A DNA stretch of 64,000 nucleotides from Candidatus Latescibacterota bacterium (GCA_965217585.1 OZ244561.1:6816001-6880000); one strand, 5' to 3'; positions 1-38,696 are shown, counted from the first letter of the stretch. The notes: generated by a model from the sequence alone, not told the origin. Numbers and translations: made by a program.

Positions 1-1332
1 GGCTTCAAAGAGGGGGTCGCCCTCCCCAGGCGCGGCTTCTAAGTCCGTCACTATCCACGTGTTGTCCTCGCCGGATAACGGCTCCCACAGTACCTCCAAC
101 CCCCCATCGCCGGTAAAGTCGCCTATCCGATAGGGCGCATGGTTTTCGGCCACCGCCAACCGGGTAGCCGTCCACTCCCCATGCTCGACCTCCCAGACCT
201 CTAACGCTCTTCCTCCGACCACTATATGGTCTGAAAATAACTCGACATCGCCGTCCCCATCCCAATCCATCAAGCCTACGGGTCGGCGGTCAAGTAGCTG
301 CGTGAGCACCTCAATCTGAAGATCCGGCTCGATGGACCAAACCGCTATGTCTGAGGTAGCGAACACGATCTCGTCGGTGCCATCGCCGGTCAGATCGCCA
401 CTCCGCACACTCAAGTAAGTCCCCGATCCGAGCGCCTCAGTGCGCACCGTTTCAAAGGTCCCTCGGCCGTCATTGAGCGCCATGACCCAGCCGCTTATGA
501 AAGGATTCGGGCCGGTTCCTATAACATCCCAAGTGGAGAACAGGTCGAGATCGCCGTCGCCATCCAAGTCCGTCAAGACACCAGAGCCCCCTAAACCCGG
601 CGCAATCGGAGAGAAGACCGGCGGGGCGAAAAGCCCGACCCCCTCAAAACGAAAATACGCTACCAACGGCGGGGCTAATTCCCCCAATAACAGCTCTTCC
701 ACGCCGGTCAACTCGATCCAGTCGATCTCCAACCAACCAACCACCTCCGCCGCTGACCGGGGCACATCTCGCTCACCCCAATCCAAGCTAAAACTCAGCC
801 GAATATCCCGTAAAAGACCCTCCCACACCTCCCGGTCGTCCGGGGCGACCTCCCCGTCCGATTCGGGCAGTGTTACCTCTACTTCCTGCCACTCGGTGGT
901 ATAGACAATGCCGGCTTGTCCGATCAGCGAAAACCGGTTGCTAAACAGACTAGCTGGATCTCGACCTGGAGCCGTGCGGTTGTGCTCATTGGTCCAAGAC
1001 AGCCGAAAGGCACCAACCGTAGGACGGTGATGGACCGTGCGAAGCCGAACCCGGACCCGGTCGAACAGACCCGAATCGTAGCCTATGGTCGAAGAAATCA
1101 CTTGGACAAGCGGATTGGGATACTTCTTGCCGGCCACTGACGGCGACACATCAATCGTCCACACGCCGTCTGTGACCTGCCCTGGAAACAGGTTAAACTC
1201 AGCCGGACCACCCGCTGCAGCACCTTGTTTGGCGGCCCATCCTTGGGTCGTCCCATCGTCGAAATCCCACGTGAGCGCCTCGGCGAGGCCGCTCCATGAC
1301 ACAACGAACACAACAACGGCGAGCTTCAACAT
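1..1332 (-). CDS. FG-GAP repeat secreted protein, paralog of the array family (3' end runs off the window)
   Basis: Absent from the ORF track because there is no stop in the window. ATG at 1332 follows GGAGG; it reads MLKLAVVVFVVSWSGLAEALTWDFDDGTTQGW, contains LTDLDGDGDLDLF, and is still in frame at base 1 (PLFEA). Confidence 0.85.
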   Translation of the reverse strand, partial: MLKLAVVVFVVSWSGLAEALTWDFDDGTTQGWAAKQGAAAGGPAEFNLFPGQVTDGVWTIDVSPSVAGKKYPNPLVQVISSTIGYDSGLFDRVRVRLRTVHHRPTVGAFRLSWTNEHNRTAPGRDPASLFSNRFSLIGQAGIVYTTEWQEVEVTLPESDGEVAPDDREVWEGLLRDIRLSFSLDWGERDVPRSAAEVVGWLEIDWIELTGVEELLLGELAPPLVAYFRFEGVGLFAPPVFSPIAPGLGGSGVLTDLDGDGDLDLFSTWDVIGTGPNPFISGWVMALNDGRGTFETVRTEALGSGTYLSVRSGDLTGDGTDEIVFATSDIAVWSIEPDLQIEVLTQLLDRRPVGLMDWDGDGDVELFSDHIVVGGRALEVWEVEHGEWTATRLAVAENHAPYRIGDFTGDGGLEVLWEPLSGEDNTWIVTDLEAAPGEGDPLFEA

Positions 1333-1387
1333 GATATCCCCTCCATAGAGAACGTCCCGGCAAGACCGCATACTTGGCTCCATCTCC

Positions 1388-3520
1388 TCACGGCAGCTTC
1401 GTCGTCTTCTTGGCCTCCGCCCGTCCGTCCACCTCGACTTGATAGATATACACCCCAGCGGCCACCGCTTTGCCCACCTCGTCGCGACCATCCCAAGTAA
1501 AACGATGCGTACCCGCTCCCAGCGGCCCTTGCCACACCTGCCGCACCCGACGACCCAACACATCGTACACCGTCAACGACACCCTCGCCGCGTCCGTCGC
1601 TAAATCAAGGGGAATCACTACAGCCGGATTGAACGGATTGGGATAACTGTCGCCCAGCCGATGCTGTGCCGGCCGCGCTACTGCTGGCGTCAGCACCGCC
1701 GTCATCTGCTCGCCCACCGAACTCTTCAACACCTGCACCCCGCCCAAGAGGTGATTTAACACCACCAAGTCCACATCGCCGTCGCCATCGACATCCCCCG
1801 GCAGCACCTGTACCCCATCGCCGGCCAAACGATGCCACTCCACCTCCTTGGCCGGATTCAAGCCCCCACCCCATTCGACAAACACCCCCAAACCCGAGGC
1901 GCGATCCCCGCCGAAAAACACCCAATCATCCACCCCGTCCCCGTTCAAATCGCGCATCACTACTGGCGAGCGCAGAAGCAGCCGATCATCATACAGCACC
2001 CTCTCCTCTACACCGCCCCCTAATCGGCTACTCCGGATGACAAGGCCCTTGCGAAGTTCCCACGTGTTGTGTTCGAGCGGCGTGAGCAAGTCCACCTGCC
2101 CATCGCCATCAAAATCACCCACTTGTAAGAGGTAAGAAAGAATACCCGCCGTATCGGCTGCGGCTTCAAAGACGGCTTCGCCCGCCTCCGGCGCGTCGCC
2201 CAAGCGCGAGACCATCCACCTGCCCACCCAGCTTCTCGGTGACCACAGCACATCCAACTGCCCATCGCCGGTAAAGTCGCCCAGCCGCAAGGGAAAATAG
2301 GTTTCGGCCACCGCCAACTGGGTAGTCGTCCACCCCCCCTGCTCAACCTCCCAGACCTCTAACGCTCTTGCTTCCTTCACCCTCAGGTCGGCTGTAAACA
2401 GTTCGACCCGACCGTCGCCATCCCCATCCACCAGATCTACCAGCCCGCGATCCTGGATCTGCGTGAGCACCTCCATTTGCAGATCCGGCTCAATAGACCA
2501 GACCGTTATTTCCCAATCTTCTCCTGTCACGATCTCGTCTTGGCCATCGCCGGTCAAATCGCCGACGTGCAGATAATCGAACCCCTCTCCGATTTCCTTT
2601 TCGGAGCGCGCCGTTTCAAAGGCCCCGCTCCCATCATTGAGGGCCATGACCCAGCCGTTTACGAAAGGATTCGGGCCGGTTCCTCTATCACGCCACGTGG
2701 AAAACAGGTCGAGATCGCCGTCTGCATCCAAGTCCGTCAAGACGCCAACCTTCCTTCCTCTAAAGACGAGGGAGCGCCCTAACCTCGGCCTAATGGGCGA
2801 GAAGACCGGCGGGGCGAAGAGCTTGGCCCCCTCAAAGCGGAAATACTCTACCGACGGCGGGGCTAATTCCCCCCCTAACAGCTCTTCCACGCCAGTCAAC
2901 TCGATCCAGTCAATCTCAAACCACCCGACTAGCCCGTCCGCCGACCGAGACACCCCTATCTCGCCCCAATCCAAGTGAAAACTCAGCCGAATATCCCGTA
3001 AAAGACCCTCCCACACCTTCGCGTCGTTCGGGGCGACCTCCCCGTCCGATTCGGGCAGGGCGAACGCCACTTCCTGCCATTCGGTGGTATAGGCGAAGCT
3101 GCCTTGTCCAAAAAGGAAAAACCGGCTGCTACTCCGCTTCTCTGGATCTCGACCTGGAGCCGTGCGGTTATGCTCATTGGTCCAAGTCAGCGAAAAGGAA
3201 CCGACCGTAGGACTATGATGGACAGTGCGGACCCGGGCCCGAACCCGGTCGAACAGGCCCGAATCATAGTCTATGGTCGGCGAAATCACTTGGACACTCG
3301 GACTAGGAGACTCATCTCTGGCCATCGAGGGCGACACATCTATCGTCCACACGCCGTCTGTGACGTGCCCTGGAAACAGGTTAACTTCAAACGTGCCGCC
3401 CCATCCATTGCCTGTTTTGGCGGCCCATCCTTGGGTCGTCCCATCGTCGAAATCCCACGTCATCGCCTCGGCGAAACTGCTCCATAGCACAACGCATACA
3501 ACAACGGCGAACTTCAACAT
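1388..3520 (-). CDS. Secreted FG-GAP/VCBS repeat protein with N-terminal jelly-roll-like domain and FlgD-Ig/T9SS type A-like C-terminal domain
   Basis: Signal peptide MLKFAVVV...AEA; repeated DxDGDGxxD motifs; YPNPFNP...WDGRD...GVYIY...KKTTKLP tail. Start moved from 3562 to the ATG after GGAGG. Confidence 0.88.
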   Translation of the reverse strand: MLKFAVVVCVVLWSSFAEAMTWDFDDGTTQGWAAKTGNGWGGTFEVNLFPGHVTDGVWTIDVSPSMARDESPSPSVQVISPTIDYDSGLFDRVRARVRTVHHSPTVGSFSLTWTNEHNRTAPGRDPEKRSSSRFFLFGQGSFAYTTEWQEVAFALPESDGEVAPNDAKVWEGLLRDIRLSFHLDWGEIGVSRSADGLVGWFEIDWIELTGVEELLGGELAPPSVEYFRFEGAKLFAPPVFSPIRPRLGRSLVFRGRKVGVLTDLDADGDLDLFSTWRDRGTGPNPFVNGWVMALNDGSGAFETARSEKEIGEGFDYLHVGDLTGDGQDEIVTGEDWEITVWSIEPDLQMEVLTQIQDRGLVDLVDGDGDGRVELFTADLRVKEARALEVWEVEQGGWTTTQLAVAETYFPLRLGDFTGDGQLDVLWSPRSWVGRWMVSRLGDAPEAGEAVFEAAADTAGILSYLLQVGDFDGDGQVDLLTPLEHNTWELRKGLVIRSSRLGGGVEERVLYDDRLLLRSPVVMRDLNGDGVDDWVFFGGDRASGLGVFVEWGGGLNPAKEVEWHRLAGDGVQVLPGDVDGDGDVDLVVLNHLLGGVQVLKSSVGEQMTAVLTPAVARPAQHRLGDSYPNPFNPAVVIPLDLATDAARVSLTVYDVLGRRVRQVWQGPLGAGTHRFTWDGRDEVGKAVAAGVYIYQVEVDGRAEAKKTTKLP

Positions 3521-3558
3521 GACAGCACCTCCATACCGAACTCCGCAGGACGGCTTCC

Positions 3559-4535
3559 TCACAGATTTTCCTCGATTTTCGCCACAACCTCATCAACGTT
3601 CCATACCCCCAAACGATCCTCCACAATCAGCCCTTGTGGATCCACCAGATAATACCGAGGAATGTCGAACACATTATAGGCTTGCGTTACCGCGCCGTCC
3701 GAGCGCACGTGGACGCCTTTGATTTGGTGTTTGGCAATGGCTTGCTTCCAAGCTCCTTCATTCGCGTCCAACGAGACGTTGAGGAAGACGACCGGCTGAG
3801 TGGCCTGCTATTGAAGGGTGTTTTTCTATTAAAGGGTTTGATGCTTAATATGCGCCCCAAGACGCCGTTTATAGACGAAAACCGCGTATAGGAAATCTTC
3901 TGATTGGCCCACTTGTAGTTGAAGAAGGCCGTCATATAGTCGATGAATCCCGGAGAAAGCGCGTATTGCTCGCGTCCATCGGCTAGCAGCGCAAATTCAT
4001 CCCGACGCCGCTGTTCTGCTTGGCGTGCAAACTCTTCGGACTCCAGCGCATAGTCGGGTTCGAAGGCACTATGTTGAGGCCAGAACTCCGCTAAGAAGCG
4101 ATTGTTGTCCGCACCCCGGCCGTTAAAAGTCAGGGAGTAGGAGGGAGGCGCTTCATCGGCGGCACTGTGCAAACTGTCGGGTTCCACCGCCGCGGAAGAG
4201 TCGGTCTCCGTCACCTCGGCGAAGGTTACGACCGCGTACAGGCTGTCACCGGGTTCGACAAAGAAAGGGAAGTGGATGTGTTGCTCGCCTTTGTAAGACC
4301 CAGTGACGAAAATTCCTCTGGGAATGTTCAAGAGCAGGGCAAAGCGGTTTTGCTCGTCCAAGACGATGGGGTGTTGGGACGGCCCGGGAGCGAGTAGCGG
4401 TTCGTGGCCGAACTCGACTTCCCGCGACGGAGCGTTGTGTACCTCACCGGTGACAATCGCGGCGTGGGGGGCTTGGGCTAGCCCCACACTCGCTGTACTG
4501 AACAGGGCGACGAGGATGTAAAGGCATAGATGCAT
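3559..4535 (-). pseudogene. TlpA-like redoxin paralog with internal deletion and frameshift
   Basis: The N-terminal ~240 aa match 10460 and 12501. Near 3808 the sequence jumps out of frame to QPVVFLNVSLDANEGAWKQ...KIEENL. The helical repeats and the WCGPC motif are absent. Confidence 0.8.
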
Positions 4536-4572: not shown

Positions 4573-4614
4573 TTATGGGAGCTTAGTCGTCTTCTTGGCT
4601 TCTATCTGTCCATC
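4573..4614 (-). repeat. Orphan 3' stub of the C-terminal domain (DGQIEAKKTTKLP-stop)
   Basis: Intergenic 42 bp that translate to the conserved tail of the FG-GAP genes. Confidence 0.85.
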
Positions 4615-4644
4615 GCTGCCAAGCCGAGCAAATGACACATCGCA

Positions 4645-4938
4645 CTAATCATCTACCCACGCCTCCAAGCCCCAACACTCCAGCGACCTCTGGATGGAGG
4701 GAGGGAGTTGCTGAAAACGCAACGTCAGACCCAATTGCCCCAAACGGATCGCGTCTCGCTCAAGCAATGGACTAATGCTCCGCACTTCGTTAGCCACGAT
4801 GCAGACCTCCCTTACCCCCTCCTCGACATGCGATTTTAGGCAATCATACAGGATGTCGAACTCCGTCTTATTGATATACCCCATGAGTTCGATGGTTAAG
4901 GTCCGGCCGCAGCGATTTAATGTGTTAATGCGCACCAT
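4645..4938 (-). CDS. Small STAS-like domain protein
   Basis: 97 aa with a beta-alpha STAS-like pattern (LTIELMGYI...VRSIS...IQRSLECWGL) and an RBS GGAGG upstream. Confidence 0.55.
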   Translation of the reverse strand: MVRINTLNRCGRTLTIELMGYINKTEFDILYDCLKSHVEEGVREVCIVANEVRSISPLLERDAIRLGQLGLTLRFQQLPPSIQRSLECWGLEAWVDD

Positions 4939-4981: not shown

Positions 4982-7102
4982 TCAAGGTAGCTTGGTCATC
5001 TTCTTAGCTTCTACCTGTCCATCCACCTCGACCCGATAGAGATACACCCCAGCGGCCACCCCCTTCCCCGCCTCGTCGCGGCCATCCCAAGAAAAACGAT
5101 GGCTGCCCGCCCCCAGCGGCCCTTGCCACACCCGCTGCACCCGCCGCCCCAACACGTCGTACACCGTCAGCGACATCTGCGCCGCGTCTGTCGCCAAATC
5201 AAGGGGGATCACTACAGCCGGATTGAACGGATTGGGATAGCTGTCGCCCAGCCGATACTGCGCCGGCCGCGCTACTGCTGGCGTCATCACCGCGGTCGCT
5301 GACGCTCCCACCGAACTCTTCAACACTTGCACGCCACCCAAGACGCTATTTAACACCACCAAATCCACATCGCCGTCCCCATCCACATCCCCCGGCAGCA
5401 CCTGTACCCCTTCGCCGACCAAACGATGCCGCTCCACCTCCTTAGTCGGATTCGCGCCCCCACCCCATTCGATGAACACGCCAAAGCCCGATCCGCGGTC
5501 CCCGCCGACAAATGCCCAATCCTCTACGCCGTCGGCGTTCAGGTCGCGCGCTACCACCGGTGAGCGCATAAACAGCCCATCATACAGCACCCTCTCCTCT
5601 ACACCGCCCCCTAATCGGCTGCTCCGCACGACAAGGCCCTTGGGCCCTTCCCACCTGTTGCGTTCGAGCGGCGTGAGCAGGTCCACCTGCCCATCGCCAT
5701 CAAAATCACCCACTTGTAGAAGGGAAGAAAGAATACCCGCCATATCGGCTGCGGCTTCAAAGACGACCTCGCCCGCCTCCGGCGCGTCGCCCAAGCCCGC
5801 TACTACCCACCTGCCCACCCGGCCTCTCGGCGACCACAGCATGTCCACCTGCCCATCGCCGGTAAAGTCGCCCATCCGCGAGGGAAAATAGTTTTCGGTG
5901 ACCGCCAACTGGGCGGTCGTCCACACCCCCTGCTCGACCTCCCAGACCTCTAACGCTCTTGTTTCCTCCACCGTAAAGTCGGTTGTAAATAGTTCGACCC
6001 GGCCGTCGCCATCCCAATCCACCATATCCACCAGCCCACGACCCTCGATCTGCGTGAGCACCTCCATTTGCAGATCTGGCCCAATAGACCAGACCGTTAT
6101 TTCCCAATCTTTTCTCGTCGCGATCTCGTCTTGGCCATCGCCGGTCAAATCGCCGACGTGCAGATAATCGATCCCTTCTCCGATCCTCTTTTCAATGTGC
6201 ACCGTTTCAAAGGTCCCCCTCCCATCATTGAGGGCCATGATCCAGACGTTTACGAAAGGAGGCGAGTGGAAATTCTCCCAAGTAGAGAACAAGTCGAGAT
6301 CGCCGTCCCCATCTAAGTCCGTCAAGGCGGCAGCGCTCCATCCTTTTAAGAAGGAGCGCTCTGACTCCGATATAATGGGAGAGAAGACCGGCGGGGCAAA
6401 AAGTCCGGCCTCCTCAAAGCGGAAATACTCTACCGACGGCGGGGCTAATTCCCCTGCTAACAGCTCTTCCTCGCCGGTCAACTCGATCCAGTCGATCTCC
6501 AACCACCCGACTAGCTCGTCCACCGGCCGGGACACCCCCATCTCGCCCCAATCCAAGTGAAAACTCAGCCGAATATCTTGTAAAAGCCCCTCCCAGACCT
6601 CCCGGTCGTCCGGTGCGATCTCCCCGTCCGCTTCGGGCAATGTGAACTCCACTTCCTGCCATTCGGTCGTATAGGCGAAGCCGCTTTGTCCAATAAGAAA
6701 AAACCGGCTTCTACCTCGTCTATCTGGATCGAGACCTGGATCTGTGCGATTGTGCTCATTGGTCCAAGTCAGCGAAAAAGAACCGACCGTAGGACCGTGA
6801 TGGATAGTGCGGACCCGAGCCCGGACCCGGTCGAACAGGCCCGAATCATGTCCTATGATAGGCGAAATTACTTGGACACTCGGGCTAGGAAGCGGATCTC
6901 CGGCCATCGAGGGCGACACATCAATCGTCCACACGCCGTCTTCTACTACCCCCGGAAACAGGTTAAATTCAAACGTGCCACCCCATCCATTGCCTGTTTT
7001 GGCAGCCCATCCTTGGGTCGTCCCATCGTCGAAATCCCACGTCATCGCCTCGGCGAAACTGCTCCACAGCACAGCGCATGCAATGATAGCGAACCTCAAC
7101 AT
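4982..7102 (-). CDS. Secreted FG-GAP repeat protein with FlgD/T9SS-like CTD
   Basis: Close paralog of 1388..3520; ends KKMTKLP; start at MLRFAII after GGAGG. Confidence 0.88.
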   Translation of the reverse strand: MLRFAIIACAVLWSSFAEAMTWDFDDGTTQGWAAKTGNGWGGTFEFNLFPGVVEDGVWTIDVSPSMAGDPLPSPSVQVISPIIGHDSGLFDRVRARVRTIHHGPTVGSFSLTWTNEHNRTDPGLDPDRRGRSRFFLIGQSGFAYTTEWQEVEFTLPEADGEIAPDDREVWEGLLQDIRLSFHLDWGEMGVSRPVDELVGWLEIDWIELTGEEELLAGELAPPSVEYFRFEEAGLFAPPVFSPIISESERSFLKGWSAAALTDLDGDGDLDLFSTWENFHSPPFVNVWIMALNDGRGTFETVHIEKRIGEGIDYLHVGDLTGDGQDEIATRKDWEITVWSIGPDLQMEVLTQIEGRGLVDMVDWDGDGRVELFTTDFTVEETRALEVWEVEQGVWTTAQLAVTENYFPSRMGDFTGDGQVDMLWSPRGRVGRWVVAGLGDAPEAGEVVFEAAADMAGILSSLLQVGDFDGDGQVDLLTPLERNRWEGPKGLVVRSSRLGGGVEERVLYDGLFMRSPVVARDLNADGVEDWAFVGGDRGSGFGVFIEWGGGANPTKEVERHRLVGEGVQVLPGDVDGDGDVDLVVLNSVLGGVQVLKSSVGASATAVMTPAVARPAQYRLGDSYPNPFNPAVVIPLDLATDAAQMSLTVYDVLGRRVQRVWQGPLGAGSHRFSWDGRDEAGKGVAAGVYLYRVEVDGQVEAKKMTKLP

Positions 7103-7125
7103 GATATTACCTCCATATTCTCCGC

Positions 7126-7209
7126 GATGGTCGCGGCGTGTGGTGATTGGGTCAGCCCTATACTCGCGGTACTGAGCAGGGCGACGAGGATGCAAAGGTA
7201 TGAATTCAT
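7126..7209 (-). pseudogene. Orphan 5' stub (signal peptide) of a TlpA-like paralog
   Basis: MNSYLCILVALLSTASIGLTQSPHAATI matches the TlpA leaders, carries the same AAAGGAAAAG upstream sequence, and joins directly to the RBS of the next FG-GAP gene. Confidence 0.8.
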
Positions 7210-7231: not shown

Positions 7232-8218
7232 CTATGGACAATCCGCGCCTCGCGCGCTATCAATGCCGTCAAGCCAGCTTTGAAAGTCCGCGTCCACCGG
7301 CGCACAAAGCCCTGGGTCGTCGAACCAAAAAGTCTCCAGCCGCAACAGCTTCGTCAGGCTCTGCGGAAGCGGGCCAGTCAATGAGCGATTAGAGGTAAAC
7401 CTCAGGTTTGTAAGGTTGGACAAATTGCCCAACGACGACGGAATCCCGCCCGACAAAGCATTGAAAAAAAGACCCAGTGTCTCAAGGTTGGACAGATTGC
7501 CCAAGGACGACGGAATCTCACCCGACAGAGCATTGAAAAAAAGACCTAGATACTCAAGGTTAGATAAATTGCCCAAAGCGTCTGGAATCCCACCCGATAG
7601 ATTATTTGTCCCAAGATGCAGGTACTCGAGGTTGGACAAATTGCCCAAGGCGTCTGGTAGCTCACCCGACAGACCGTTTGAACGAAGATCTAATTCCGTG
7701 ACATGACCGTCGATAACCCTGACGCCGTGCCAAGCAAGACCATGGTCGGTCAACCAATTTGTATTCATCGTCCAGTTGGGACCATCGGTCGCCTCGTAGA
7801 GCGCGACTAAAGCCTCGCGTTCGTGCGCGACTGTCGGTGCCACCGGCTTGACGACGGTGACCTCAAAGGTCACTTCGTTGCTCTGCTGACCGCTGGCATC
7901 CGTGGCGGAGACCGTGATCGTCGTAGTACCCACCGCAACCCCTGTGAGAGTAAGGATGGCTCCGTTCAGGGAGGCGAGGGCGACCCCGGTATGGTCAGAC
8001 GAGACCCGTAGCGCATAAATGTCCTCGGAATCGGCATCGATAAGAATGACCTCTACCTTCACTTGGCCACCTACATCGACGATCTGATCGGCGATAGCCT
8101 CAATAGAGGGCGCGTTCACGGGATTGTCACCGCCACAGCCGACGAGGCAAAGCGCAAGGCCCAAAAGGGAGAGTACGGTAACACAGAAAAATCGCGTAGC
8201 GCGCTCCTGGAGTCGCAT
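7232..8218 (-). CDS. Lipoprotein with Ig/cadherin-like domain and plant-type leucine-rich repeats
   Basis: Lipobox LVGC; NAPSIEAIADQ...ITVSATD Ig-like domain; ALVALYEATDGPNW cap; 24-aa repeats LSGxIPxxLGNLSNLxxLxL. Confidence 0.85.
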   Translation of the reverse strand: MRLQERATRFFCVTVLSLLGLALCLVGCGGDNPVNAPSIEAIADQIVDVGGQVKVEVILIDADSEDIYALRVSSDHTGVALASLNGAILTLTGVAVGTTTITVSATDASGQQSNEVTFEVTVVKPVAPTVAHEREALVALYEATDGPNWTMNTNWLTDHGLAWHGVRVIDGHVTELDLRSNGLSGELPDALGNLSNLEYLHLGTNNLSGGIPDALGNLSNLEYLGLFFNALSGEIPSSLGNLSNLETLGLFFNALSGGIPSSLGNLSNLTNLRFTSNRSLTGPLPQSLTKLLRLETFWFDDPGLCAPVDADFQSWLDGIDSARGADCP

Positions 8219-10421: not shown

Positions 10422-10459
10422 GACGGAACCTCCATACCGAACTCCGCAGGACGGGTTCA

Positions 10460-26614: not shown

Positions 26615-26641
26615 AATCCTTTAGGAATACCCTAAAGGATT
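26615..26641 (-). terminator. 11-bp inverted repeat plus T-run, copy 2
   Basis: AATCCTTTAGG-aatac-CCTAAAGGATT. Confidence 0.6.
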
Positions 26642-26715
26642 GAAAAATATAATACTTGAAATATGAAACGAGTCTTTTTACGAAGTGCAGCCTCAGCCGT
26701 CGGCGCAAGGTTTTA

Positions 26716-26750
26716 CACGATTTTTCGTGCAATCTGAACGATTTTTCGTG
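26716..26750. promoter_or_regulatory. Two tandem enhancer-like palindromes
   Basis: CACGATTTTTCGTG and AACGATTTTTCGTG, 21-bp period. Confidence 0.65.
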
Positions 26751-26758
26751 TTGGCCGC

Positions 26759-29946: not shown

Positions 29947-29973
29947 AATCCTTTAGGAGGACCCTAAAGGATT
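29947..29973 (-). terminator. 11-bp inverted repeat plus T-run, copy 3 (no sigma54 motif downstream)
   Basis: AATCCTTTAGG-aggac-CCTAAAGGATT. Confidence 0.55.
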
Positions 29974-30047
29974 GAAAAACATAACACTCAAAATATGAGA
30001 TGATTCTTTTTACGATGCGCAGCTTCAGCCGCCAGCGCAAGGCTTGC

Positions 30048-30061
30048 CACGACTTTCCGTG
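30048..30061. promoter_or_regulatory. Single enhancer-like palindrome upstream of bEBP 2
   Basis: CACGACTTTCCGTG, identical to the sites at 17944 and 38183. Confidence 0.5.
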
Positions 30062-30123
30062 TTGGCCGCCTACGACTTTTTCGGGGCTTGTGGACCGACA
30101 AGGCAGGATTGGTGCGGAAGGGC

Positions 30124-31288: not shown

Positions 31289-32875
31289 CTATTCGAGCTT
31301 GACCATTTTTCGGGTGCGTAGCTGCTCGCCCACGCGTAGCTGATACAAATAGGCTCCAGAAGCGACGGGTCGGCCCTGCCCGTCTCGGCCATCCCAAGTC
31401 AGCCGGTGTTCGCCCGCCGCCAACGGCCCCGACCACACTTGGCGCACAAGCTGTCCCAAGAGGTTGTAGATGGCTACATCCACAGCCTCGGCACCGTCAG
31501 GCACCGATAGGGGGATGGTCGTGGCCGGATTAAACGGATTGGGATAGTTCGCACCCAAGACAAAGTCCGACGGCGTAGCCTGCTCAATGGCGACGGCTGT
31601 GGGCGGACTGCTCTGGTTGATAAAGACGAAAGCCCCACCAGGACCGCCTTCCACATTCTGCCCCAACACGACCAGCTCGGCGGCCCCATCGCCGTTGAGG
31701 TCACCGGCGAGCACCTCGCTGCCTGTGCCCGGCAGCCGGTAGCGGCCTTCGAGGACGGGCACGCCATCGCGCTGGCCGATCAAGACGACCAAGGCCGGAC
31801 CCGTTTCCAAGTTGCCATCGACCAAGGCCACGTCCGGCAGACCATCGCCGTTGAGGTCGCTGACAAGAGGGCGACCTTGCACGTGTACCTGCGAGCCGAG
31901 CAGCGTGTGGCGTGCCACCGCGCCCGAGGGGTCCAGACGCCACAACGCCAAGCCGTGGTAGGTGTGTGCGGTTAGCTCGGTGATCCCAACTAAATCCACC
32001 TGTCCATCGCGACCGACCTGTAGCAGGGTGGAGTAACAGGGGTTGACCATGAACTCAAAAAAAAGCGGCGGCTCCGCGCTGACCGCCCACGGCTGGGTTA
32101 GCCAAACCCCCATCGGTCCAGCCTCTTCGAACTCCCAGCACGATCGGATCCATAACAGGCGCACGGCCCCTCTCGCTCCCAATGATTGCTCGGCGGACCA
32201 AAGCCTAGGCCAGAGCCTGTCCTCGCTGTCAAGGGTGAACCGATCGCTGCGGACAAACTCTGCGTCGCCGTCGTTGAACCACACGGTCGCTTGGGATGTC
32301 CCCTCGTGGTTTTCCAATGACTCGTCGTCATACTCCATGACCAACAGGTCCACATCGCCGTCGCCTTCACCATCGGCTAGGCCAACGAAACCGGTATTGG
32401 GCAGTTGCAGGATGGTGGCAAAGCCGTCCTCGCCCCGGTTGTGCCACAGTTCGAGGTTCAATCCCTCCTCAAAGGCTAGATCCAAGAGTCCATCCCCGTC
32501 GAAGTCGTCCCCCCAGATACTAATGATGGGCGCGCTTCCTTCTCCTGCTTCTCTTTTTCCGTGCATGACGTCGTGGGTGGGGACCAAGCCACCCAGGCCG
32601 TCGTTGGACGCCACGGTCCAGCCCCAGTGTGGAAAATGTTCTCCCGAGGCTCCGTCGTCTGCATATACGTGTGGCGACCAACGATTCCAAACTGTCACGA
32701 GATCCAAATCCCCATCGCCATCTACATCGCCCAAAGCGCCGGTATCATCATGGAACCCCATGCCGATGCCCGGGCCAAGGGTAAAAAAGTCGGGTTCTAC
32801 AAACAACGCGCCGGGCGAGGCAAAAGCCCCGTATGGAGCCGCCAACAGCAAAATAGCTACGATAAAGCGGTGCAT
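31289..32875 (-). CDS. Divergent secreted FG-GAP protein with FlgD/T9SS-like CTD
   Basis: Signal peptide; GDVDGDGDLD repeats; ANYPNPFNP...WDGRD...RKMVKLE; lacks the N-terminal jelly-roll-like domain. Confidence 0.85.
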   Translation of the reverse strand: MHRFIVAILLLAAPYGAFASPGALFVEPDFFTLGPGIGMGFHDDTGALGDVDGDGDLDLVTVWNRWSPHVYADDGASGEHFPHWGWTVASNDGLGGLVPTHDVMHGKREAGEGSAPIISIWGDDFDGDGLLDLAFEEGLNLELWHNRGEDGFATILQLPNTGFVGLADGEGDGDVDLLVMEYDDESLENHEGTSQATVWFNDGDAEFVRSDRFTLDSEDRLWPRLWSAEQSLGARGAVRLLWIRSCWEFEEAGPMGVWLTQPWAVSAEPPLFFEFMVNPCYSTLLQVGRDGQVDLVGITELTAHTYHGLALWRLDPSGAVARHTLLGSQVHVQGRPLVSDLNGDGLPDVALVDGNLETGPALVVLIGQRDGVPVLEGRYRLPGTGSEVLAGDLNGDGAAELVVLGQNVEGGPGGAFVFINQSSPPTAVAIEQATPSDFVLGANYPNPFNPATTIPLSVPDGAEAVDVAIYNLLGQLVRQVWSGPLAAGEHRLTWDGRDGQGRPVASGAYLYQLRVGEQLRTRKMVKLE

Positions 32876-32965: not shown

Positions 32966-33853
32966 CTAACGAGTACCTGTTGAAAGCAGCGATTTGATCC
33001 GTCCCCACGACTGGGACTCGACGCTCGTAGCAGTAGCTGAAGGGGAAACCGATTGCCAAACGGGATTGCGTCCACCTAAGCCATTGGTCAATTCGACCAA
33101 GTTGCCCCCGTCTAGATCAACGGCCCAAATGAGCGGAGGGTGAGTGAGAGAAGCGAAGGCCATTCTCATGCCATCGGGTGCCCAAGTAGGGCGAGTTCTC
33201 CATGTGGCGTCGGACACGGTCGCGTTCCGGGGTAAGCTAGGCAGGGGAATAACCGAGTGCTCATCTTCACCAGCATCGCTGATGTAGAGGCGGGCGGGTT
33301 TCCCTGCGTCCCCTTTGTCGCGTAGCACGATGAAAGCTTCTTTGGTCCCGTCCGGGGAAAGGCTAGAGCGGCGGAAGTGGGGTGCCTCTCTCCAGTCCAC
33401 GGACAAGGAGCCACTACCGTCCAGCACCATAACGAACGTATCAGGACCGTCCCTCCGATTGTCCGTATCCGGCGGGGTATAGACGGTATAGTAAATGCTA
33501 CGCCCGTCTGCAGACCACGAAAGCAATAGTCCATCGACGGAATCGTCTGTTAGCTGCTGTGGATTGCCGCCGTCGGCATCCATCACCCAAATCTCCCCAC
33601 CGTACCGATCATCGTCAAAAACGTCGCCGATATAGGCGATTTTCGTGCCGTCTGGAGACCAAGCCGGGCTAGCGCAATCCCGCCCTTTGGTCAGATTTAC
33701 GGGGTCGCTCCCATCCGCATTCATGATCCACACGTCAAAGCGGTGCCCCTCGCGGTCGGAGATAAATGCTATCTTACCATCTGCTTGCCCCCACCCAGCG
33801 ACGGCCAATCCCAGCGTTGCCAAGCAGACGATCAGTAGGGATCGATAGTTCAT
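32966..33853 (-). CDS. Secreted PD40 propeller protein with SWGRIK tag
   Basis: Shared leader MNYRSLLIVCLATLG; PD40 repeats. Confidence 0.85.
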   Translation of the reverse strand: MNYRSLLIVCLATLGLAVAGWGQADGKIAFISDREGHRFDVWIMNADGSDPVNLTKGRDCASPAWSPDGTKIAYIGDVFDDDRYGGEIWVMDADGGNPQQLTDDSVDGLLLSWSADGRSIYYTVYTPPDTDNRRDGPDTFVMVLDGSGSLSVDWREAPHFRRSSLSPDGTKEAFIVLRDKGDAGKPARLYISDAGEDEHSVIPLPSLPRNATVSDATWRTRPTWAPDGMRMAFASLTHPPLIWAVDLDGGNLVELTNGLGGRNPVWQSVSPSATATSVESQSWGRIKSLLSTGTR

Positions 33854-33898: not shown

Positions 33899-34915
33899 TC
33901 ATGGGGCTGAAAGCAGCGATTTGACCCGTCCCCACGAGGTCTCGGCCACAGCCGTCGGCTCCCCATCGGTATAAGACGCGATGTCCATCACGTAAATCCC
34001 CCAGTCGCCGTCGCGGTTGGATTCAAAGGCGATGTACCGACCATCGGGAGACCAAGACGGAGACCTGTAGTTGGCCGAGTGGTCTATCAGGCGGCGGGGA
34101 TTGCTCCCATCCGATCCCATCACGTAAATCTCGGCCCTGTCGTAGCGCTCGGACTCAAAGGCGATGTACCGACCATCGGGAGACCAAGACGGAGCCCTAT
34201 CGTCGGCCGAGTGGTCCGTCAGGCGGCGGGGATTGCTCCCATCCGATCCCATCACGTAAATCCCAGCCCTGCCGCCGTGCTCGGACACGAAGGCGATGTG
34301 CCGACCATCCGGAGACCAAGACGGAGACTCGACCTGCTCCGGGTGGTCGGTCAGGCGGCGGGAGTTGCTCCCATCCGATCCTATCGCGTAAATCTCAGCC
34401 TTGCCGTAGCTACCGCGCCGGGACACGAAGGCGATGTGTCGGCCATCCGGAGACCAAGACGGAGACCAGTCCCAATGCGAGTCGTTGGTCAGGTTGCGGC
34501 GGTCGCTCCCATCCGAGCCTATCACGTAAATATCGCTGACGCCGCGCTCGGACACGAAGGCGATGTGCTGGCCATCGGGAGACCAAGTGGGAAGCGCGGC
34601 CCAAGCTGGGTGGTCGGTCAGGCGGCGGAAGTTGCTCCCATCCGAACCTATTACGTAAATCTTAGCCCTGCCGTCGCGCTCAAACCCGAAGGCAATGTGC
34701 TGACCATCGGGAGACCAAGTGGGAGAACTGTAGCTGGACGAGTAGTCAGTCAGGCGGCGTATGGCCCCGACGACCCAAGCCCCCTCACCACTGCTCGTCA
34801 CCGCTTGTTCAATCCCCGCCGACAGTTCAACATCCTCAGCGTCGGCTTGCCCCCAGCCAGCGACGGCCAGCCCCAAGGTTGCCAAGCAGACGATCAATAG
34901 AAATCGATAGTTCAT
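33899..34915 (-). CDS. Secreted TolB-like protein with six regular PD40 repeats and SWGRVK tag
   Basis: P(S/T)WSPDGxHIAF repeats of about 43 aa. Confidence 0.88.
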   Translation of the reverse strand: MNYRFLLIVCLATLGLAVAGWGQADAEDVELSAGIEQAVTSSGEGAWVVGAIRRLTDYSSSYSSPTWSPDGQHIAFGFERDGRAKIYVIGSDGSNFRRLTDHPAWAALPTWSPDGQHIAFVSERGVSDIYVIGSDGSDRRNLTNDSHWDWSPSWSPDGRHIAFVSRRGSYGKAEIYAIGSDGSNSRRLTDHPEQVESPSWSPDGRHIAFVSEHGGRAGIYVMGSDGSNPRRLTDHSADDRAPSWSPDGRYIAFESERYDRAEIYVMGSDGSNPRRLIDHSANYRSPSWSPDGRYIAFESNRDGDWGIYVMDIASYTDGEPTAVAETSWGRVKSLLSAP

Positions 34916-34950: not shown

Positions 34951-35847
34951 TTATGGCAGCTTGGTCGTTTTTTTCGCTTCCACCTGTCCGTCCACCTCGA
35001 CCTTATAGATATACACTCCGGCCGCCACGGCCTTGCCCTGCTCGTCGCGGCCATCCCACACAAACCGATGGCTACCCGCCCCAAGCGGCCCGTGCCACAA
35101 CTGCCGCACCCGATGACCCAACACGTTGTAGAGTGCCAAGTGGACCCGTTCCTCGTCGGTGGCCAGATCGAGGGGAATGACTATCGCGGGATTGAACGGA
35201 TTGGGATAGGCAGTGCCGAGTCGATGCTGCACTGGTTGGCCCGCTGACGGTGTCAGCACGGCGGTCGGCATCGCCTGCTTGACCTCCGAACAGAGGGTGG
35301 AGGAGCAGAGACAACTTCGCCACCACATGTCGTCGTTGAAGTGGTACGTAGTGCAGTGCCGGTACGGCTCGGTCGAGTTAAACTCTGCGCACTCGTCGGA
35401 GTACCAGCAACCAGTATCTTGACTGGTCGCGGCCGTCAGCACCCACTCTGGCACGGCCTCCGAACAGGGCGTGGACGAGTACCAACAGTTTTTTATGTAG
35501 AAGGAGCAGTCCGCGTCCAAGGCATAGATGCAGTAGAGGTATTTCGCCTCCGGCTCCACTGGATCTGTATCTGCCCGCGCGCAAATTGGATGCTCGGAGT
35601 TGGCGCTACAGTCGAAACACTGAATCCAAGTGTTCGGGCACGGTATGCAAGTAGGCGTCGGCGTCGGGCACAACCTGTTGGCTTCGGCTTTATTGATCCC
35701 AATCAGGCAAGTAGGCGTCAAGCACACCGGGTCGGCTTCGGCTTTGTTGATCTCGATCAGGACCGCAAGCCCCGCGAGGACACTCAGCCCCAGCCGAATC
35801 GGAGCCAAGCCGCTGGACGAGCCGATAAATTCACGCAGCCTGTTCAT
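34951..35847 (-). CDS. Secreted cysteine-rich protein with FlgD/T9SS-like CTD
   Basis: Hydrophobic leader; many Cys; SSTPCSE repeats; KKTTKLP tail. Confidence 0.8.
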   Translation of the reverse strand: MNRLREFIGSSSGLAPIRLGLSVLAGLAVLIEINKAEADPVCLTPTCLIGINKAEANRLCPTPTPTCIPCPNTWIQCFDCSANSEHPICARADTDPVEPEAKYLYCIYALDADCSFYIKNCWYSSTPCSEAVPEWVLTAATSQDTGCWYSDECAEFNSTEPYRHCTTYHFNDDMWWRSCLCSSTLCSEVKQAMPTAVLTPSAGQPVQHRLGTAYPNPFNPAIVIPLDLATDEERVHLALYNVLGHRVRQLWHGPLGAGSHRFVWDGRDEQGKAVAAGVYIYKVEVDGQVEAKKTTKLP

Positions 35848-35859: not shown

Positions 35860-36909
35860 TTAGTTGCCGGTACGGTCTCGCAAATGCCTCTTGATCTGCC
35901 CCCACGAGGTCTCCGCCGTAGCCGTCGGCTTCCCGTCGACATAAGACGCTATGTCCCAGAAACGCACCAAGTAGGATTGACCCGTGGCGCTGGCCAACGT
36001 GCGACCATCCGGTGAATACGCCACGAAGTCCGCACGCCCTTCGAGCGTATTGAGGAGTTCGCCTGTCGCCGCATCCCAAAGATGGATCGTGTGGTCATTA
36101 GTACTGACCAACATGCCTCCATCCGGTGAATACGCCAAACCATCACCACATTTACCGAAATGACCTAGCCCTTCGAGCGTATTGAGGAGTTCACCCGTCG
36201 TCGCATCCCAAAGACGTATCGTTCGATCTCGACTCCCACTGACCAGCCTGCGCCCATTCGGCGAGTATGAAACACTCACGACACCATGCGTGTGCCCTCT
36301 AAGCGTGTTGAGGAGTTCACCCGTCTTTACGTCCCAAAGACGAACCGTTTCGTCGGAACTCCCACTGACCAGCCTACTCCCATCCGGCGAGTATGAAACA
36401 CTCAGGACACTCTCTTTATGCCCTGTAAGCGTATTGAGAAGTTCACCTGTTGTCGTGTCCCAAAGACGTATCGTTTTGTCGAGACTCCCACTAGCCACTG
36501 CGTCCCCTCCCGGCGAATACGATACGCTAAAGACGTTATCCCTATGCCCTCTAAGCGTGTTGAGAAGTTCACCCGTCTTTGAGTCCCAAAGACGAACCGT
36601 TTCGTCGAAACTCCCACTGACCAGCCTGCTCCCATCCGGTGAATACGCCACATCCCAGACCAAATACGTATGCCCTGTAAGTGTGTTGAGGAGTTTACCC
36701 GTCGCCACATCCCAAAGACGAACCCTTTCGTCGAAATTCCCAGTGGCTACTACGTCCCCGTCTGGTGAATACGCCACACTAGTAACCCAGCTTGGTAGCC
36801 CTTTGGAATAGCTGCTACCCCCTTGGGAATAGCTGCTACCCGGCAGGCCAAAAGCTATCAAGCAGGCGATTAACACGAGACGGGTTTGATGTACAACTCG
36901 CGTTTTCAT
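35860..36909 (-). CDS. Secreted WD40 repeat protein with SWGQIK tag
   Basis: 42-aa GH...YSPDG...WD repeats; start MKTRVV. Confidence 0.9.
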   Translation of the reverse strand: MKTRVVHQTRLVLIACLIAFGLPGSSYSQGGSSYSKGLPSWVTSVAYSPDGDVVATGNFDERVRLWDVATGKLLNTLTGHTYLVWDVAYSPDGSRLVSGSFDETVRLWDSKTGELLNTLRGHRDNVFSVSYSPGGDAVASGSLDKTIRLWDTTTGELLNTLTGHKESVLSVSYSPDGSRLVSGSSDETVRLWDVKTGELLNTLRGHTHGVVSVSYSPNGRRLVSGSRDRTIRLWDATTGELLNTLEGLGHFGKCGDGLAYSPDGGMLVSTNDHTIHLWDAATGELLNTLEGRADFVAYSPDGRTLASATGQSYLVRFWDIASYVDGKPTATAETSWGQIKRHLRDRTGN

Positions 36910-36967
36910 GGGAAATTCCTTTCGGTGAGTTTTGAGGACTCTTCCACACGCCATTTTCAATCATTCC

Positions 36968-37951
36968 TTATGGCAGCTTGGTCGTCTTTTTCGCTTCCAC
37001 CTGTCCGTCCACCTCGACCTTATAGATATACACTCCGGCAGCCACGGCCTTGTCCTGCTCGTCGCGGCCATCCCACACAAACCGATGGCTACCCGCCCCA
37101 AGCGGCCCGTGCCACAACTGCCGCACCCGATGACCCAACACGTTGTAGAGTGCCAAGTGGACCCGTTCCTCGTCCGTCGCCAAATCAAGAGGAATCACCA
37201 TCGCGGGATTGAACGGATTGGGATAGGCATCGCACAGCCGATGCTGCGCCGGCCGCGCTTCCACCAATGTCTGCACGGCGGTCATCTGATCCTGCTCGGC
37301 CTCCGAACAAGAGGTGGAAGAGCACTCGCATTGTCGCCAAAAAATGTTGCCTTCTGCGTTATAGTAATTAGTGCAATATCGGTACGGCTTGGTCGAGTCC
37401 CTCCCCTCGCACCAGCGGTTATCGCACTCAGTCTCTTGATTGAAGCAAGCATTGGTCGGCCCTGTGAACGCGGTCGCGGTCTCCGGCTCGGCCTCTGAAC
37501 AGGGGGTGGAGGAACACTCGCATGCTTCTGTCCCAAAAACGTCGCCGTTTGCTTTGTAGTAGTTGATACAGTATCGGTACGGCTTGGTCGAGTCCCTTCC
37601 TGCGCCGCACCACCGGTTATCGTTATCGCAATCAACCTTTCGGGTCAGCACAGCGGGTGCGATCCCTTGGTCGGCCTCCGAACAGGGAGTGGAGGAGTTC
37701 CAGCAATCCACTGTGTAGAAGTTGCAGTCCGCGTCCAAACCATAGGTGCAATAGCGATACATCCCCTCTGCCGACGCACAATCGGAGCCGGCACTGCACA
37801 CGGTCCAAGTGTACGGGCACTCTGTGTCGGCTGCGGAGCCCCTTGCGCCGAAGAGAATCACAAGCCCCGCGAGGGCACTTACGACCCATCCTTGCCCCTG
37901 TCGTATCCCCAACGTTGCCAAGCAGGCGATCAGTAGAGATCGATAGTTCAT
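36968..37951 (-). CDS. Secreted cysteine-rich repeat protein with FlgD/T9SS-like CTD
   Basis: Three YRYC...C...SSTxCSEA repeats; CTD nearly identical to that of 34951. Confidence 0.8.
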   Translation of the reverse strand: MNYRSLLIACLATLGIRQGQGWVVSALAGLVILFGARGSAADTECPYTWTVCSAGSDCASAEGMYRYCTYGLDADCNFYTVDCWNSSTPCSEADQGIAPAVLTRKVDCDNDNRWCGAGRDSTKPYRYCINYYKANGDVFGTEACECSSTPCSEAEPETATAFTGPTNACFNQETECDNRWCEGRDSTKPYRYCTNYYNAEGNIFWRQCECSSTSCSEAEQDQMTAVQTLVEARPAQHRLCDAYPNPFNPAMVIPLDLATDEERVHLALYNVLGHRVRQLWHGPLGAGSHRFVWDGRDEQDKAVAAGVYIYKVEVDGQVEAKKTTKLP

Positions 37952-38003
37952 AACGTGGCTCGTTTCAGAAGGTTAGGAATGGGGTGCCTACGGAGGAATA
38001 TAT

Positions 38004-38018
38004 GCACATTCCGTGCCA
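38004..38018 (-). promoter_or_regulatory. sigma54 promoter, copy 3
   Basis: TGGCACGGAATGTGC, identical to copy 1. Confidence 0.85.
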
Positions 38019-38039: not shown

Positions 38040-38066
38040 AAGCCTTTAGGAATACCCTAAAGGCTT
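38040..38066 (-). terminator. 11-bp inverted repeat plus T-run, copy 4, with a compensatory base-pair change
   Basis: AAGCCTTTAGG-aatac-CCTAAAGGCTT. Confidence 0.6.
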
Positions 38067-38140: not shown

Positions 38141-38196
38141 CACGTTTTTTCGTGGAATCTTCACGGTATTTCGTGGATTTTCCACGACTTTCCGTG
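38141..38196. promoter_or_regulatory. Three tandem CACG-N6-CGTG palindromes
   Basis: Sites start at 38141, 38162 and 38183 (exact 21-bp period). Confidence 0.7.
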
Positions 38197-38204
38197 TTGG
38201 TCGC

Positions 38205-38612
38205 CTACGACTTCTTCGGTCGGCGCAACCCGTACTTCCTCATGCGATAGCGCAGCTTCTCTGGGCTCATGCCCAACAAATGCGCCGCGCCCCGCTCGCC
38301 ATAGATCATCCAGGTACTCGCCCACCGGTAAGGCATTGTACGCGACCGTATCGGCGGCCGTAAACGCGCTCCATTGTTCCGCTGGACCGTGGCCTAACAG
38401 CCGATGGCTGTAGCGCATCTGCCCCGCGCCGGTGCGGAAGCTAATGCCCTGGAAGTGAATGCGGATCTCAGGCGTGCTCTCTGGGCAGGATACGGCTTCG
38501 GGCGCGGCCAAGAGGGTGCCAGCCATCACTTCGCGGATGACCAAGCGCGGCGGCGTGCGTCCCGATTGGCCGACAGCCCAACTGTTCGGCAGTAAAGTGG
38601 CGTACCTCCCGA
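38205..38612 (-). pseudogene. Remnant of a third enhancer-binding protein gene
   Basis: Three joined fragments: propeller (REVRHFTAEQ), Y_Y_Y (TPPRLVIREVMAG...LPVGEY) and HTH (MIYGERGAA...RRPKKS-stop). The AAA+ domain is missing. Confidence 0.88.
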
Positions 38613-38696
38613 GACCGCGGTGCTGCATTCATCAAGATAAGCTAGGGCTGCCTCAAGTTGAATTTTACCAGACAAATATGCTTCTTCATATATCCT

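Follow-up and report, generated by a model that had tools for sequence, protein, structure and literature searches.

A candidate sigma-54 regulon of exported proteins with conserved gene ends in a Candidatus Latescibacterota genome

Organisation of the array and its regulatory module

The window analysed here is a 64,000-nt stretch of a Candidatus Latescibacterota genome (G000:C1:6816001-6880000; a single contig of 7.32 Mb, 59.5% G+C), and its positions 1-38628 carry an array of genes for predicted sigma-54 activators and exported proteins. All open reading frames (ORFs, called mechanically) of this part that match a family or have a paralog are encoded on the minus strand, and of the long plus-strand ORFs within the array, eight were tested and none matched a Pfam family, which bears out the single orientation described in a first-pass annotation made from the sequence alone. 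The first plus-strand gene, an alpha/beta hydrolase (38658-39623), lies past the array. The locus is larger than that annotation had it: the array continues below the window start down to genome position ~6,791,600, so that 1-38628 represents the upstream 60% of ~63 co-directional kb with five modules, four full activators and two relics. Two further full activators lie below the window start on the same strand (genome 6808527-6811664 and 6797631-6800774), together with an N-terminal activator relic, more FG-GAP genes with a C-terminal domain (CTD), three DUF4159 membrane proteins and a second copy of a gene for a 97-aa protein (L002:8106-8399 (-)). Elsewhere in the genome, related arrays are found at 0.81 Mb and 3.64 Mb, and one cassette each at 2.76 Mb and 3.79 Mb.

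Within the window the array falls into three blocks, each made up of an activator gene or relic, then palindromes, a hairpin and a -24/-12 promoter, which is the layout first proposed (array features are on the minus strand throughout). Activator 1 (17966-21091, 1041 aa) and activator 2 (26759-29872, 1037 aa) have the same architecture, a double Reg_prop propeller and a Y_Y_Y domain followed by a sigma-54 AAA+ domain with GAFTGA and a putative Fis-type helix-turn-helix (HTH). PF00158 scores 231 bits in both (cut-off 20.2), the AAA lid is also present, and Walker A (GETGTGKG) and GAFTGA read intact in both translations. HTH_8 scores 21.8 and 22.0 bits (cut-off 22), Reg_prop 133-141 bits and Y_Y_Y 21.2-24.8 bits, below its cut-off of 26.6. 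Residues 1-720 match sensor structures of Bacteroides hybrid two-component systems (PDB 3v9f, E 1e-46; 4a2l/4a2m, E 1.2e-37), and a Pfam scan of the activators found no kinase or receiver family. Neither activator has a signal peptide, a membrane helix or any hydrophobic segment (19-residue Kyte-Doolittle maximum 1.21-1.33, where exported cargo N-termini reach 1.39-2.53), and the protein is therefore a predicted cytoplasmic one-component sensor-activator, which would be induced by a cytoplasmic ligand. Block 3 is headed by a relic (38161-38628) that has lost the AAA+ domain and most of the propellers, keeps its Y_Y_Y part and runs out of frame over the last ~33 codons; it has no Pfam match, and its identity is 91% for bEBP_N and 89% for bEBP_YYY.

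Activator matches were found in all 41 genomes searched in the class, with full-length copies (57-90% identity) only in the genus; other families of the class match only from ~residue 490 on, at 38-48% identity. Against named genomes, the best 80 of 602 stretches all match only residues ~590-1041, the generic AAA+ part. In a tree of 15 activator copies, each paralog of the present genome clusters with copies from other species, at supports of 97/97, 95/96 and 100/100; these are therefore old paralogs that predate the species splits, not recent local duplicates. Literature searches combining 'regulator propeller' with activator terms, or 'Latescibacter' with type IX secretion system (T9SS), sigma-54 or FG-GAP, found no paper with these terms among those listed.

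Behind each of the three activator or relic stop codons lie two to three CACG-N6-CGTG palindromes starting 20-21 bp apart and an A/T-rich tract, followed by a 12-pair hairpin (CCTTTAGG..CCTAAAGG) with a T-run and, ~25 nt beyond, by TGGCACG(G/A)AATGTGC. In block 1, three palindromes (17903-17957, spacing 20 and 21 bp) precede the hairpin and T-run (17802-17828) and the promoter TGGCACGGAATGTGCC (17764-17779). Block 2 has two palindromes at a distance of 21 bp, one of them perfect and the other degenerate (26716-26750), the hairpin and T-run (26615-26641) and the promoter TGGCACGAAATGTGCA (26578-26593). Block 3 has three palindromes with starts 21 bp apart (38141-38196), a terminator-like hairpin of 12 pairs with its T-run (38040-38066) and the promoter TGGCACGGAATGTGCA (38003-38018). 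All three promoters keep the GG and GC elements at canonical spacing (TGGCAC-N5-xTGC), and no terminator-like site of the region ranks above the block hairpins; the count of sigma-70-like sites does not exceed that in shuffled sequence. Two fossil modules lie upstream of the activators. The one before activator 2 (29947-30085) consists of an activator 3'-end remnant, one palindrome and a hairpin with T-run, and lacks a -24/-12 element; the one before activator 1 (21245-21300) retains an activator 3'-end remnant and a degenerate palindrome.

The combined hairpin-plus-promoter pattern occurs in ten copies in this genome, all on the reverse strand. Among the genomes searched it is nearly confined to the genus, with 1-10 copies in each of 13 of 22 congeners, against 1/42 genomes of other genera of the family and 0/56 of other families of the class, and the reversed control pattern was found in 0/121 genomes. 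The combined pattern thereby lies above chance, unlike the generic promoter pattern. An alignment of 19 candidates, one of them a false pick, left 18 real modules from this genome and nine loci of relatives. All 18 keep the palindromes, A/T-rich tract, hairpin, T-run and -24/-12 element while their flanks differ, and the base pair closing the hairpin stem covaries as T-A, G-C or C-G.

Covariation extends to the recognition helix of the activators. Activators of the LRYRM type with perfect palindromes downstream have CACG..CGTG sites in 8/8 cases, those of the LRSRM type have TACG..CGTA in 2/2, and the single RKHGLQRP-type activator is followed by GTCGTTC repeats. The LRSRM-type sites (genome 6797324-6797480 and 820661-820800; L001, L005) read TACG-N6/7-CGTA, and in one case they form four perfect copies spaced by 21 bp. 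The LRSRM activator at 6797631 is nested among LRYRM types in the tree, suggesting that helix and sites may have been swapped together; less than 100 bp separates the two, and they would therefore be inherited or converted together. Because all three window blocks carry CACG-type sites, the relic-headed block 3 could be served in trans by activators 1 and 2. The genome encodes rpoN (TIGR02395, 433.6 bits, cut-off 277.35; genome 10142-11575). Together with the intact GAFTGA, the canonical promoter spacing, the module shared across species, the covarying stem base and the helix-site covariation, this argues for the sigma-54 and enhancer control originally proposed for the array.

Cargo predicted to be exported and its C-terminal tags

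Of 22 cargo genes in the window, nine end in a T9SS-type CTD, seven in a short SWGxIK tag and six in neither, and the view that most cargo carries one of two tags is sustained by these 16. Family matches likewise bear out the FG-GAP, PD40, WD40, leucine-rich repeat (LRR) and Cys-rich types named in the first-pass annotation. Its description of the cargo as non-enzymatic fits the scaffold families and proves too narrow for the whole: TlpA-like redoxins belong to the core of the locus and two relatives add an M10-like metallopeptidase, so that the cargo is not purely non-enzymatic.

FG-GAP proteins consist of a signal peptide, an N-domain of ~200 residues, a propeller and the CTD. From the window start, their genes are the N-terminal part of one that runs off the window (1-1563; genome 6815230-6817563), 1388-3562, whose 3' third is of the type of the next gene downstream, 4982-7195, the ortholog of the single FG-GAP gene of the congener G001 (dS 0.11), 8325-10463, whose CTD appears converted to the type of 1388-3562 and 4982-7195, and 14609-16747, with CBM-like N-domain, propeller and KKTTKLP end. 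Further upstream follow 23436-25468, read as two ORFs (23436-24866 and 24863-25468) due to a 1-base gap at 24864, and a diverged member with another CTD subtype ending in KMVKLE (31289-32875). A model of the N-domain, built from a 19-row alignment, has 152 PDB matches at E<=1e-3, led by jelly rolls of CBM4, CBM11, CBM22, CBM27, CBM28 and GH16; an atlas look-up gave only leads below 0.9. These folds suggest that the proteins may bind ligands such as glycans.

The PD40 genes mostly have a common leader and end in the SWGxIK tag. They comprise 21388-22389, with the shared leader; 22438-23418, whose leader region is of converted 21388-22389 type; proteins b (25575-26534), a (30172-31155) and c (32966-33853), all with the shared leader and, in b and c, a tag region converted to the 30172-31155 type; and a canonical TolB-like PD40 propeller with the shared leader and an SWGxVK tag (33899-34915). 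A WD40 propeller gene (35860-36960) has its own leader and the SWGxIK tag. It lies between two Cys-rich genes that carry the T9SS CTD, A (34951-35847) and B (36968-37951); the CTD of B ends in KKTTKLP.

The six untagged genes comprise four TlpA-like genes, an LRR lipoprotein and the 97-aa cytoplasmic protein. Two TlpA-like genes encode exported thiol:disulfide oxidoreductases of 656 aa (10460-12430) and 688 aa (12501-14567) with a C-terminal redoxin domain (76 bits), which might provide redox support to the Cys-rich and FG-GAP cargo; their N-region matches unnamed atlas clusters at 0.91-0.93. Between N-domain and redoxin domain both carry five or six internal LSPAxQAQLDSMY-like repeats. The other two TlpA-like genes (3559-4535, in two ORFs, and 16760-17770, with the redoxin domain mostly lost) are broken by internal deletions of ~1.1 kb, which removed exactly the repeat part and most of the redoxin domain. 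The LRR protein (7232-8218) has a lipoprotein-type leader (LVGC), an Ig-like domain and no C-terminal tag. Its repeats are 24 residues long and of the LxxLxLxxNxLSGxIP type, and its best NCBIfam matches are Xanthomonas LRR effectors, all far below cut-offs.

The 97-aa protein (4645-4938) is the most conserved gene product of the locus (84-97% identity), and its gene closes the conserved core operon in 4/5 relatives examined. It has no Pfam or NCBIfam match and no PDB sequence match under E 0.09. A single-sequence model (pLDDT 78.9) predicts a STAS-like fold, with RsbS as best Foldseek match (6jhk_B, E 8e-4, TM 0.59), and the protein may be a regulatory partner; a complex prediction with activator residues 621-1041 returned a score of 0.01 (mark 0.32), from which nothing follows.

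The two tags differ in their standing. The CTD passed TIGR04183 in 5/5 proteins tested (24.1-29.7 bits, cut-off 23), and a genome search for PorU, SprA and PorV returned PorU (627.5 bits, cut-off 420) and SprA (483.5 bits, cut-off 200). Given also the N-terminal hydrophobic leaders, export of the cargo, as initially proposed, is the probable outcome, with surface display a likely end point. The genome has at least 51 CTD-like matches and ten ends of the KKTTKLP type, and all ten of these fall within this array. The SWGxIK tail has the consensus (A/P)TAVExxSWGRIK(A/S)xF plus a few residues and occurs on 71 proteins of this genome: WGx[IVLM]K is found 84 times in 10,067 ORFs of at least 150 aa, 71 of them no further than 22 residues from the C-terminus. 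Between K and the end of the protein lie 3-14 residues, most often 5, which leaves no room for a membrane helix and sets the tail apart from tripartite sorting signals. Most carriers belong to an exported family of ~300 aa with dozens of paralogs and a histidine-containing motif just after the leader, such as L008:362-1324 (-), L009:280-1176 (-), L010:283-1230 (+) and window 53615-54493 (-); 3/3 members tested had no Pfam or NCBIfam match. In a literature search of articles without supplements, WGxIK, SWGxIK and WGXIKXXF were spelled nowhere, and the sole WGRIK match was an unrelated virus paper. On these grounds the TAVExxSWGxIK tail appears to be undescribed.

Downstream of the whole array, genome 6779672-6787113 (L002) encodes a discoidin/FlgD_ig protein, an 873-aa protein without family and a 1040-aa TPR protein.

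Exchange at conserved ends and variation among relatives

FG-GAP paralogs are 80-95% identical in the CTD and 46-77% in the passenger. Over 21 pairs of the PD40 family, the mean proportion of synonymous differences (pS; all divergence statistics come from our own scripts) is 0.26 in the leader, 0.32 in the first blade, 0.53 in the middle, 0.33 in the last blade and 0.30 in the tag. The conserved ends and diverged middles of the first-pass annotation are thus put into numbers.

Ends and bodies also differ in their closest relatives. The pair 8325-10463 and 14609-16747 has a pS of 0.17 in the body and 0.32 in the CTD, and the pair 4982-7195 and 8325-10463 shows the reverse, 0.51 and 0.30. Mosaic tests (max-descent permutation, 20,000 shuffles) gave an uncorrected p<=4e-4 in ten of 14 triplets, with tracts at 3' or 5' ends. 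Over the whole gene 8325-10463, 76 informative sites side with 1388-3562 and 439 with its nearest full-length paralog 14609-16747; in the CTD the relation is reversed, at 25 against 7. All 16 informative sites in the tag of 30172-31155 side with 32966-33853 and none with the nearest paralog 21388-22389, and all eight in the leader of 22438-23418 side with 21388-22389 and none with the nearest paralog 25575-26534. The CTDs of the two Cys-rich genes 34951-35847 and 36968-37951 have an exact tract of 121 nt in common, although their passengers are only 33-39% identical. Other exact common tracts measure 74 nt at a tag, 60 nt in a CTD and 44 nt in a leader.

Scars of exchange lie between and within genes. 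Three orphan CTD tails were found, all behind genes without a CTD: one of 31 codons ending in KKTTKLP-stop in the spacer behind a PD40 gene (25472-25567), one reading EAKKTTKLP-stop behind a TlpA-like gene (12470-12499), which is also present in the relative G010, and one, GSDGQIEAKKTTKLP-stop, that continues the frame of the 97-aa gene past its stop codon (4573-4620). At 36968-37951 the promoter module and the first 15-16 codons of a PD40-type leader are grafted onto a Cys-type N-terminus. These three tails and the chimeric leader would mark the points of exchange. A single leader precedes three unrelated passengers, and a single CTD subfamily is attached to four. Stubs between genes had been noted before and are confirmed by the tails, the two internally deleted TlpA-like genes, the activator relics and the two fossil modules; one apparent stub pair, 23436-24866 with 24863-25468, turned out to be only a 1-base frameshift, the unbroken form of which is present in contigs of a public run.

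Conserved ends could also stem from purifying selection on export signals alone, without exchange between copies, and the proportion of nonsynonymous differences (pN) is indeed at its minimum at the ends of PD40 genes (0.08 for leaders and 0.12 for tags, compared with 0.34 for the middle) and amounts to 0.04-0.15 in CTDs. We consider this very improbable: synonymous divergence drops at the ends too, the nearest relative switches along genes in 10/14 tests, the 121-nt exact tract connects genes with strongly diverged passengers, and orphan tails exist. Recombination at conserved ends, for which the first-pass annotation had proposed the test, is hence supported by the mosaic tests, the long exact tracts, the orphan tails and the chimeric leader.

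Stubs and mosaics might in turn be artefacts of assembling a repeat-rich region. Public sequencing runs were listed in 23 entries from 12 studies, none of them of RNA; we mapped contigs of four runs against positions 17001-27000 in 30 bins, and the stretch was covered in three studies. In run X1, 226 of 605 mapped pieces were at least 99% identical and 30/30 bins were covered, and run X7 covered 15/30; the longest listed piece on the stretch measured 1134 nt, and contigs of this length are too short to confirm gene order. The base missing at 24864 is present in run X1 contigs (at a depth of 10.6 out of 17.4), and its lack in the genome is either a polymorphism or a consensus error of the assembly; to that extent one split gene does favour an artefact. 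Array copies are only 73-93% identical and therefore easily told apart, the pieces of run X1 match at high identity across all bins, and similar stubs and the same CTD tail recur in independently assembled relatives. A general assembly artefact is, on balance, hardly credible.

Five congeners have the flanks of the locus in common, with the divergent hydrolase upstream in all and a common downstream gene in four (G010, G012, G013 and G022). Between these flanks the content differs in 5/5, as the proposed synteny comparison was to reveal if order and content vary. G001 has an activator followed by TlpA, FG-GAP and the 97-aa protein, and G010, G012 and G022 hold arrays with two activators. The conserved core of TlpA-like redoxin, CBM-like/FG-GAP propeller with CTD and small, putatively STAS-like protein is also found in relatives; PD40, WD40, LRR and Cys-rich genes are variable additions. 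In G010 and G022, the orthologous locus further encodes a metallopeptidase of M10-like type, 857 aa long, that combines YWTD (LDL-receptor class B) repeats with a KKTTKLP CTD (L035:4051-6624 (+) and L031:10340-12913 (+)); this gene is absent from the array of G000. Contigs of runs X1, X5 and X8 join 17853-17980 to 21256-21324 and skip activator 1, with joint sides of 20-45 nt that make the joint unreliable; the same activator-less arrangement exists in G012 and G013, and these contigs may derive from co-occurring relatives. Cargo genes have a dN/dS of 0.37-0.72 and activators one of 0.16-0.19; the cargo value, two to four times that of the activators yet below 1, indicates a putatively relaxed or diversifying pressure.

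Such a pattern invites the idea of a dedicated diversification system, in which tag-spacer-leader junctions and promoter modules are selected homology arms and passengers of a surface repertoire are frequently shuffled within populations for host contact, adhesion or evasion. The exact tracts of 44-121 nt at ends only, the orphan tails and chimeric leader exactly at module borders, the reuse of one leader and one CTD subfamily on unrelated passengers, the differing content in all five congeners and the raised dN/dS of cargo agree with it, and the activator-less joint in contigs of three runs would do so weakly, given its short sides. Pfam scans and self-comparison, however, revealed in the stretch neither a recombinase or reverse transcriptase nor an inverted repeat or a silent cassette without promoter, which for the recombinase agrees with the first-pass annotation. 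Self-matches of the array are inverted in 0/151 cases, all copies have their own starts and leaders, and they differ by 7-27%. The activator paralogs are older than the species splits, and paralog dS (0.22-0.5) exceeds that of orthologs between G000 and G001 (0.06-0.15). CTDs fail to cluster by species, overall dN/dS stays below 1, and the short public contigs demonstrate no variant within a population. We therefore regard programmed diversification, an idea that goes back to the first-pass annotation, as unlikely. The same holds, at similarly long odds, for a combinatorial generator of surface proteins in which helix and sites within ~100 bp move as a matched unit and the junctions act as homology arms that re-pair passengers with export routes (T9SS CTD or SWGxIK tail) within populations; if true, an uncultured bacterium of the Fibrobacteres-Chlorobi-Bacteroidetes (FCB) group would have a counterpart of antigenic-variation loci that works without a recombinase.

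Interpretation and comparison with known systems

The explanation we favour, at a probability of roughly 0.7, is that duplicated and partly decayed cassettes make up a sigma-54 regulon of exported proteins, which ordinary duplication, deletion and sporadic gene conversion have reshaped. Each cassette would start with a cytoplasmic one-component activator, whose double propeller and Y_Y_Y domain are fused directly to the sigma-54 AAA+ domain and the putative Fis-type HTH. Two to four palindromic sites in 21-bp phase, starting just past the activator stop codon, would form its enhancer, followed by a strong hairpin terminator, the -24/-12 promoter and a long operon of Sec-exported proteins. The cargo would be sorted by three routes, namely a locus-specific subfamily of the T9SS type A CTD, the TAVExxSWGxIK tail or a lipobox. 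Unequal crossing-over would duplicate or delete cassettes and genes, and gene conversion would work through conserved leaders, tags and promoter modules; the outcome would be mosaics, orphan tails, relics and a species-specific gene content.

Several results weigh against this regulon of ordinarily recombining cassettes. On the regulatory side, the use of the promoters is read from sequence features, the generic TGGCAC-N5-TTGCW pattern (<=1 mismatch) is not above chance (4 found, shuffle mean 1.98, with 12/100 shuffles reaching 4), and terminator-like sites are no more numerous than in shuffles. Of 13 LRYRM-type activators examined, five, all in relatives, lack both a perfect palindrome and a -24/-12 match in the 330 nt that follow the gene. 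For export and binding, PF18962 stays below cut-off for all CTDs (17.8-21.6 bits against 27), a PorV-like gene adjoining PorU scores 153.8 bits, below the cut-off of 250, and the CBM-like model has a mean pLDDT of 68.6 with TM 0.33-0.49 by query length. As to exchange, pS in diverged middles is possibly inflated by alignment error, and the mosaic test, our own implementation without multiple-test correction, was not significant in 4/14 triplets (p 0.06-0.27). The gene order rests on one assembly, which public contigs of at most ~1.2 kb are too short to confirm. Finally, the CTD tree requires 7 changes for G000 against a shuffled mean of 8.2, and thus shows no clustering by species. Continuous concerted evolution of the CTDs was rejected on this ground, and conversion is therefore sporadic, not continuous.

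Seen as a regulon of duplicated cassettes, the array is genuine and a neat case of known processes, not a new kind of machine. Ordinary recombination can yield conserved ends, stubs and mosaics without dedicated machinery, which calls for caution with similar loci. Host-interaction, adhesion or decoy roles of the cargo, as put forward in the first-pass annotation, are at most suggested by domain types. What is new is the promoter module nearly confined to the genus, the covariation of helix and palindrome, the cytoplasmic homologue of a Bacteroides hybrid sensor, the gene-conversion tracts in leaders and tags, the orphan tails and chimeric leader as probable points of exchange, and the divergent content of the locus in the five congeners. 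A large exported-protein repertoire would here be rewired from few reusable parts: a switch-plus-promoter unit, a common leader and two C-terminal address labels. The cytoplasmic version of a Bacteroides glycan-sensor fold wired to sigma-54 is directly testable, as are the matched helix and site variants (CACG and TACG), which could serve as orthogonal expression parts. The apparent co-regulation of T9SS cargo with SWGxIK-tailed proteins, likewise testable, would offer a handle on the role of the tail.

Bacteroides hybrid two-component systems sense glycans and control polysaccharide utilisation loci. They have the same double Reg_prop propeller and Y_Y_Y sensor as the activators described here, and they are likewise encoded beside surface-protein genes, including those with carbohydrate-binding-type modules. 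The array sensor differs in being cytoplasmic, without signal peptide or membrane helix, and its output is a sigma-54 AAA+ domain, whereas theirs consists of kinase, receiver and AraC. T9SS type A cargo (TIGR04183/PF18962) resembles the array in the ~80-residue C-terminal Ig-like domain placed on unrelated passengers, with PorU and SprA encoded in the genome. The array CTD is set apart as a locus-specific subfamily, interleaved in the same operons with the second, SWGxIK tail.

Gene conversion drives the evolution of surface-protein families such as Treponema tpr, the outer-membrane protein paralogs of Helicobacter, pilE/pilS and vls. Like the array, these combine ends that are conserved with middles that vary, and they show conversion tracts and pseudogene fragments. 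In contrast to these families, the array yielded no single expression site fed by silent donors, its copies are diverged and probably expressible individually, and the time scale is that between species. Silent promoterless donors, invertible segments or a recombinase, the marks of programmed antigenic or phase variation, were not found in the stretch.

In Haft et al. (2006, PMC1569441), PEP-CTERM proteins are described as exported families, expanded by lineage, with a short C-terminal sorting module, and their genes are preceded by a conserved activator site and a -24/-12 promoter under a dedicated sigma-54 activator of the PrsK/PrsR pair. The array shares with this regulon the combination of exported families, sorting module and dedicated sigma-54 activator. 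It differs from the PEP-CTERM system (PMC1569441) in three respects: its tags are a T9SS CTD and a helix-less tail in place of a tripartite tag, its activator is a one-component propeller sensor where PrsR is a response regulator with a kinase, and its cargo forms long operons at one locus where PEP-CTERM genes are single-gene units. By analogy, the closest counterpart of the array would be such a PEP-CTERM/PrsR regulon combined with a sensor of the hybrid two-component type and with T9SS cargo.

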